64,000 nt of DNA from a phage. The DNA is taken from sequence record PV730302.1, one strand, 5' to 3'. Under the pieces are notes generated by a model. That model saw nothing but the letters and a program-made list of their open reading frames with translations. It ran no database searches and was not told the DNA's origin. Shown piece by piece: positions 53,976-54,431 of the stretch. A program made the position numbers and the translations under genes. Numbering within the stretch: the first letter of the stretch is position 1; each line of letters starts with the position of its first letter.

Positions 53976-54431
53976 TTATTTTAGGTCTTCAGCCCAGTCG
54001 AGCTTCAAGGGTTCTTTATATTCTCTGTCTAAAACAACAGGAATCTGGACATCTCCACTAAAGCTAAGGGGTCCCACATTATAAGACAGGGTGATATGAG
54101 GGGTGTAATCATCAAAATCGTGCGTAGCACCTAAGGTACGAGCATACTGATGGCGGCATTTAAGATACTCTGAATTGAGAACCAAGACCAGGACAGGAGA
54201 ATCACCGTGTTTCCATACTTCAAGATGTCCGGCCGAAGCAACTTCAAAACTTCCGGATGCAACGGTGTATGGAACGTTGACTCTTGAATAGCAGATTGTA
54301 GAATGGAATTTTTCACGAGGAACTGGATTAGGAACCTTTAAAGTGCGCTGAAGGTTTTCCAGCGCATCTAAAGTTAATTCAGAGAATTTTGCAGCAACGT
54401 ATAGACCTTGAGCAAAATCTTCGGTTTTCAT
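53976..54431 (-). CDS. 57B: 2H-phosphoesterase, Acb1-like (T4 57B homolog; anti-CBASS cyclic-oligonucleotide nuclease family)
   Basis: 151 aa; two H-x-T/S motifs (HSTICY and HITLSY); located between ipI-type genes and 57A as T4 57B. Confidence 0.75.

Follow-up and report, generated by a model that had tools for sequence, protein, structure and literature searches.

An orthologue of T4 gene 57B, predicted to code for Acb1, a phosphodiesterase directed against CBASS, in a T4-like Dhakavirus genome

We found an orthologue of T4 gene 57B in a 64,000-nucleotide stretch of phage DNA (sequence record PV730302.1; hereafter the window, whose positions are used throughout). Its predicted function is that of a working Acb1, and we put the probability that the ORF encodes a functional Dhakavirus Acb1 orthologous to T4 gp57B at about 0.93. 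The Acb1 family was founded on the T4 protein (Hobbs et al., Nature 2022, PMC9117128). Publications already cover this family with its structure, mechanism and role, and also the adjacency of the gene to internal-protein genes; an identical protein is in GenBank, and the finding is not new. The practical gain is a better label, acb1 (anti-CBASS phosphodiesterase), for a gene whose Dhakavirus relatives are entered in RefSeq and GenBank as 'RNA ligase' or 'hypothetical protein' and not as Acb1 (IME08 YP_003734284, MX01 YP_009324039, SHP1 ASJ79331); beyond correct annotation it matters little. The gene and the functional elements of its product are placed as follows.

53976..54431, minus strand: acb1 (T4 gene 57B orthologue), 151 aa plus TAA stop, ATG start
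54297..54305, minus strand: first catalytic H-x-T, H43-S44-T45 (T4 H44/T46), codons CAT TCT ACA
54090..54098, minus strand: second catalytic H-x-T, H112-I113-T114 (T4 H113/T115), codons CAT ATC ACC
53979..54002, minus strand: C-terminal lid LDWAEDLK, residues 144-151, including W146 (T4 W147), placed by alignment

The original prediction had called this ORF an Acb1-type 2H phosphoesterase at the 57B position, citing two H-x-T/S motifs as diagnostic. The 151-aa ORF, its coordinates, its length and both motifs were all correct when ORF and translation were checked. HSTICY spans residues 43-48 and HITLSY residues 112-117, and of the six histidines in the product no others begin an H-x-[TS] match. 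The motifs are thus present, but as a diagnostic they are weak alone: two or more occur in 18% of shuffles that preserve the protein's own composition, and a pair spaced 50-90 residues apart in 6.6%, so we rejected the motif argument as sufficient evidence by itself. The call rests instead on matches to sequence profiles and to a solved structure. Pfam PF23474 (Acb1), with a cut-off of 27 bits, matches at 197.4 bits (E = 1.2e-58), ORF residues 8-149 aligning to the whole profile (1-144 of 144), and PHROG 755 matches at E = 5.7e-66. The best solved relative, found by phmmer against the PDB, is the Acb1 of Erwinia phage FBB1 (7T26/7T27; E = 1.7e-58 over residues 9-148), to which the product is 65% identical (7T26). 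Identity is 85% to T4 57B (NP_049750, from NC_000866), with no internal gaps, and 99% to IME08 57B, and by tblastn the identical protein is present in Salmonella phage SHP1 (KY979109). Homologues were found by tblastn in 1,471 phage records, and in 1,462 of these the match extends over 80% or more of the query. The NCBIfam scan gave no model matching Acb1 or the Acb2 homologue described below. At the level of sequence comparison, the profile and structure matches put the Acb1 identification far beyond chance, and the original call is borne out by PF23474, 7T26, the identity to T4, synteny and the conserved residues. What we determined for this gene directly comprises sequence, family membership, residue conservation, synteny and purifying selection.

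Nine of nine functional residues of T4 Acb1 are identical in the aligned window protein, each numbered one lower (Y11, H43, T45, W73, F106, H112, T114, E140 and W146); the published T4 residue numbers were checked against the T4 sequence and fit it exactly. The active-site tetrad of T4 Acb1 consists of H44, T46, H113 and T115, and its H44A/H113A mutant is catalytically dead (PMC9117128). The complete H-x-T/H-x-T tetrad is present here and aligns to these four residues. Four T4 aromatics, Y12, W74, F107 and W147, stack on the bases and E141 contacts adenine N6 (PMC9117128); the corresponding Y11, W73, F106, W146 and E140 are identical. In T4 Acb1 a C-terminal lid that catalysis requires, residues 145-152, shuts over the substrate (PMC9117128), and without these residues the protein's activation of Panoptes is abolished (preprint, bioRxiv 10.1101/2025.08.21.671373). 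The likeness to T4 gp57B (NP_049750.1), complete for tetrad, aromatics and glutamate, is nearly so for the lid, where a single conservative change, D149E, separates the window protein from T4 LDWADDLK; the window protein is also one residue shorter at the N-terminus. FBB1 Acb1, solved as apo form (7T26) and with 3′3′-cGAMP (7T27), has both H-x-T motifs, Y11, E140 and W146 in common with the window protein, but carries F in place of W73 (T4 W74) and Y in place of F106 (T4 F107), and is longer by one residue in the turn that follows strand residue 74. The 2H fold of the Acb1 family is established by structure 7T26 (PMC9117128), and from 65% identity to that crystal structure over 140 residues we infer a compact 2H fold for the window protein; a single-sequence AlphaFold2 model of the ORF reached a mean pLDDT of 34.7 and a pTM of 0.26, too low to be of use, so that the fold assignment depends on homology to 7T26.

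The chemistry, substrate range and CBASS effect proposed for the gene are carried over from work on T4 and FBB1. By orthology, the product would be a small, metal-independent 2H phosphodiesterase that binds CBASS cyclic di- and trinucleotides with at least one adenosine (3′3′-cGAMP, cUA, cAA, cAAA and cAAG). The bases would stack on Y11, W73, F106 and W146 in a U-shaped pocket in which E140 reads adenine N6, and the C-terminal lid would close over the bound substrate. The cyclic nucleotide would be distorted on binding, placing the adenosine 2′-OH to attack the 3′-5′ phosphodiester, and the H43/T45/H112/T114 tetrad would catalyse this attack, yielding a cyclic-phosphate intermediate and then a linear product such as GpAp. 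The CD-NTase signal would then fail to reach the CBASS effector, and abortive infection would not be triggered.

The published biology of the T4 enzyme is well developed. It was found by activity-guided fractionation as the enzyme of infected cells that degrades cyclic oligonucleotides, and both 3′3′-cGAMP and cAAA were cut by T4 Acb1 and by each of nine other homologues (PMC9117128). The activity is metal-independent, cuts adenosine-containing cyclic di- and trinucleotides and spares cGG and cA4 (PMC9117128). Extended Data Fig. 10 of the same paper sets a T4 delta-acb1 lysate beside wild type in an assay of cyclic-nucleotide cleavage, T4 and T4 delta-acb1 were compared on CBASS-carrying hosts, and according to the source data of Fig. 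4c T4 Acb1 partly restored the plaque counts of phage P1 on a type III CBASS host (PMC9117128). The supplements of that paper contain no mention of JS98, IME08, JS10 or RB69. Recent papers report that T4 Acb1 also degrades 2′3′-c-di-AMP and cA3, the decoys of Panoptes guard systems, and that type II Panoptes restricts phages with intact acb1, which escape by acb1 mutation.

A homologue of the second T4 anti-CBASS protein was also observed in the window, between regB (37862..38320) and a vs.8-like ORF.

38591..38869, minus strand: Acb2/Vs.4 sponge homologue, 92 aa

This protein matches Pfam PF24729 (Acb2_Tad1_hairpin) at 57.7 bits (E = 1.3e-15) and PDB 7UQ2 'Vs.4' at E = 2.6e-28. By homology, then, the phage carries the same predicted anti-CBASS pair as T4, a nuclease and a sponge. 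Because T4 has Acb2 as well, deletion of its acb1 shows modest effects. The individual fitness contribution of the window acb1 may likewise be small, since the window also encodes an Acb2 homologue, as T4 does. Together, nuclease and sponge predict resistance to many CBASS systems that signal with cyclic di- and trinucleotides, and sensitivity to guard systems of the Panoptes type; these predictions become relevant should therapy with the phage, or host-range prediction, be envisaged.

The window protein differs from T4 Acb1 by 23 substitutions. They gather at the N-terminus and in two stretches, residues 57-59 and 76-81, the second of which is the turn just past the stacking tryptophan. Aligned with T4 codon by codon and without gaps, the gene shows 72% nucleotide and 85% amino-acid identity, and codon positions 1, 2 and 3 differ in 22%, 9% and 54% of codons, respectively. 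Synonymous sites are saturated (pS = 0.76), so that Jukes-Cantor dS against T4 is not computable and we give pN and pS instead; pN is 0.14 and pN/pS 0.18. The acb1 ORF codes for a protein and evolves under purifying selection.

The clusters at residues 57-59 and 76-81 could modulate Acb1 specificity, and this leads to one alternative, a member of the Acb1 family that has come to act on other substrates than the T4 enzyme through changes in core or turn, for example by sparing 2′3′-c-di-AMP or cA3 or by gaining substrates. The two clusters, of which that at 76-81 lies beside W74, would suit such a shift; published group-3 2H phosphodiesterases differ in specificity, for which the core of the enzyme is decisive, and published work makes decoy degradation a liability of Acb1 against Panoptes. 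The known substrate-contact residues are, however, all identical to those of T4, and for this reason a change of specificity is unlikely. Moreover, residues 76-81 are also variable against the active FBB1 Acb1, and the sole indel between the two proteins falls in that stretch, which suggests a tolerant surface turn; and 85% identity is far above that of the divergent enzymes with shifted specificity, of which 9Q2G matches only at E = 0.007. We consider a shifted substrate range very improbable.

A second alternative reads the product as a LigT-like 2′-5′ RNA ligase or RNA 2′,3′-cyclic phosphodiesterase acting on RNA ends, for instance in tRNA repair. The orthologues are named 'RNA ligase' in RefSeq, PHROG 755 is described in the same words, acb1 lies about 2 kb from tRNA genes, and LigT and Acb1 have the 2H fold in common; the LigT/2′-5′ RNA ligase families of the 2H superfamily (PF13563, PF02834) also have two H-x-T/S motifs, as Acb1 does. 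A profile search against the LigT/2H family, which the original prediction had proposed as a check, went against membership: the match to 2_5_RNA_ligase2 (PF13563) is weak (E = 0.056, 13.9 bits, well under the cut-off of 27, against 197 bits for Acb1) and PF02834 gave nothing at E <= 10. With a sub-threshold profile match only, LigT-type family membership was rejected in favor of the separate Acb1 family. The T4 orthologue was isolated by its degradation of cyclic oligonucleotides (PMC9117128), the window protein keeps every residue that stacks on or reads the bases of a cyclic dinucleotide, and descriptions of Acb1, unlike those of LigT, include a cyclic-oligonucleotide pocket and a C-terminal lid. 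We found no report of ligase activity for the Acb1 family in the literature examined. The 'RNA ligase' label seems to be an old name inherited from the 2H superfamily, and an enzyme acting on RNA ends is hardly credible here.

The Acb1 identification also agrees with gene order. We examined the neighborhood of acb1, in which all annotated genes lie on the minus strand.

56912..57433, minus strand: gene 4
56088..56924, minus strand: gene 2
55415..56005, minus strand: gene 3
54654..55415, minus strand: gene 1, dNMP kinase
54431..54661, minus strand: 57A tail-fibre chaperone, directly upstream of acb1 (PHROG 1002 'tail fiber chaperone', E = 3.5e-26)
53930..53963, minus strand: promoter-like site and overlapping hairpin in the acb1-Ip9 gap
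53626..53898, minus strand: Ip9-like internal head protein, 90 aa, capsid-targeting sequence (CTS) MKTYQEFIAE (PHROG 7673, E = 2.2e-56), first gene downstream of acb1
53257..53565, minus strand: Ip7-like internal head protein, 102 aa, CTS MKTYKEFINE (PHROG 2667, E = 3.2e-41)

Lying directly downstream of 57A, acb1 is the positional orthologue of gene 57B of T4 (Tevenvirinae), and the minus-strand order 4-2-3-1-57A-57B-internal proteins-trna.4/.3/.2-tRNAs matches that of T4, IME08 and MX01. In T4, too, gene 57B is preceded by 1-57A and followed by an internal-protein gene and trna.4/.3/.2; the internal-protein gene there, however, is ipI, in place of the two unrelated Ip9- and Ip7-like genes of the window. 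The order 1-57A-57B is kept in T4, IME08 and MX01 and in CC31, ValerieMcCarty05, Muldoon, ECML-359 and Kc304, the last five covering five further genera (Karamvirus for CC31, Jiaodavirus, Muldoonvirus, Gaprivervirus, Winklervirus). The 57A TAA stop and the acb1 ATG overlap by one base (TAATG; junction GAAGAATAATGAAAACC), against 4 nt in T4. Because of this overlap of stop and start, translational coupling of 57A and acb1 is suggested, and the two genes would be co-transcribed.

Escherichia phages MX01 and WG01 are 95% identical to the window over the 3.1-kb stretch around acb1, the MX01 locus including both internal-protein genes. IME08, AnYang, QL01 and others show 92-97% identity over 86% of the 3.1-kb query. 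Across its final 25 kb the window shows about 94% identity to PSD2002 and LHE83 and 91% to JS10. IME08, MX01 and SHP1 are classified in Straboviridae, Tevenvirinae, genus Dhakavirus; the close relatives being Dhakavirus, the window is therefore taken as part of a T4-like Dhakavirus genome. Just two tRNA genes, Arg(tct) and Met(cat), were observed, 5 nt apart (51759..51915, minus strand). IME08 and SHP1 have three tRNAs (Arg, Asn, Met) at the same locus, and tRNA-Asn appears to be missing from the window phage.

The gap between acb1 and the Ip9-like gene contains an early-promoter-like site (53963..53936; GTTTACA-16-TGATACTAT) that scores 9/12 with TG, overlapped by a perfect 10-bp hairpin, AGGTCTATAG-8 nt-CTATAGACCT (53930..53957; MFE -17.9 kcal/mol, z = -4.5). 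At the same spot T4 keeps both boxes with a different inverted repeat (stem of 13 pairs, MFE -17.4 kcal/mol), ECML-359 has another repeat (GTGTAGG/CCTACAC), and in MX01 the stem reaches 18 bp (MFE -28.5 kcal/mol); the element is absent from genera whose next gene overlaps the 57B stop. With no U-run after it, the hairpin was rejected as a canonical terminator. A scan of 52900..56200 returned no terminators and 13 promoter-like sites, not above the 10.6 +/- 2.9 expected from shuffles, and since the count is close to that expectation the scan is uninformative on acb1 transcription. Just upstream of acb1 no sigma-70-like or late-promoter TATAAATA signal stands out; near acb1 there is no copy of TATAAATA, whose sole occurrence within 50-58 kb, upstream of gene 4, is near 57.4 kb. 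It is conceivable, though very improbable, that the substrate profile of the Dhakavirus allele differs from that of T4 through the clusters at residues 57-59 and 76-81 (for example by weaker cleavage of the Panoptes decoys 2′3′-c-di-AMP or cA3); in that case the promoter and hairpin between acb1 and the variable internal-protein cassette might mark where an anti-defence island is bounded, by recombination or by regulation. If the substrate profile did differ, CBASS evasion would be retained while guard systems were avoided.

The MX01 orthologues of the two genes after acb1 are annotated as Ip9 (that of 53626..53898) and Ip7 (that of 53257..53565). Their N-terminal sequences MKTYQEFIAE and MKTYKEFINE are a CTS of the type ending in the (L/I)-x-E prohead-protease site of the T4 internal proteins. 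These two CTS genes do adjoin acb1, as had been predicted, but they are transcriptionally downstream of it (lower coordinates on the same minus strand) and not upstream. Their proposed standing as candidate counter-defense genes proved to be by analogy only. T4 IPI is an anti-GmrSD protein (cited in PMC9117128), and the 'anti-defence island' remark has already been made for T4 acb1 and ipI (PMC9117128). By BLASTP the Ip9-like and Ip7-like proteins resemble T4 IPI in the N-terminal CTS region only (13/32 and 12/32 residues aligned, respectively), the 10-residue CTS is all that the three have in common, and a Pfam search of the two CTS proteins found no family. Orthology of either protein to IPI was therefore rejected, and because only the CTS is common to them no counter-defence role can be transferred.

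The content of this interval varies among relatives. Two internal-protein genes follow 57B in the window and in MX01, one short ORF in SHP1, and in IME08 one internal-protein gene plus about 500 bp without annotated feature; most records of related Dhakavirus phages, those with 86% coverage of the 3.1-kb query, lack the Ip7-like gene. This variation, compared at the sequence level, fits a hypervariable cargo locus (53257..53898) between conserved genes.

The N-terminus of Acb1 itself (MKTEDFAQG; 54405..54431, minus strand) bears a loose likeness to the neighboring CTS MKTYQEFIAE; T4 Acb1 begins MMEFKDFSTG. The likeness is probably chance, since the window Acb1 is without the (L/I)-x-E protease site. 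Six ORFs of the window, all on the minus strand, start with MKT[YF]x[ED]F (40058..40357, 40897..41493, 41576..41974, 50844..51308, 53257..53565 and 53626..53898). The product of 50844..51308 (154 aa, MKTYNEFLTE) matches PHROG 2280 'unknown function' and no Pfam family, and may be an unannotated internal (packaged) protein. Beside this CTS gene lies a 191-aa ORF (50245..50820, minus strand) with a full-length match to Pfam DUF7338 at 212 bits.
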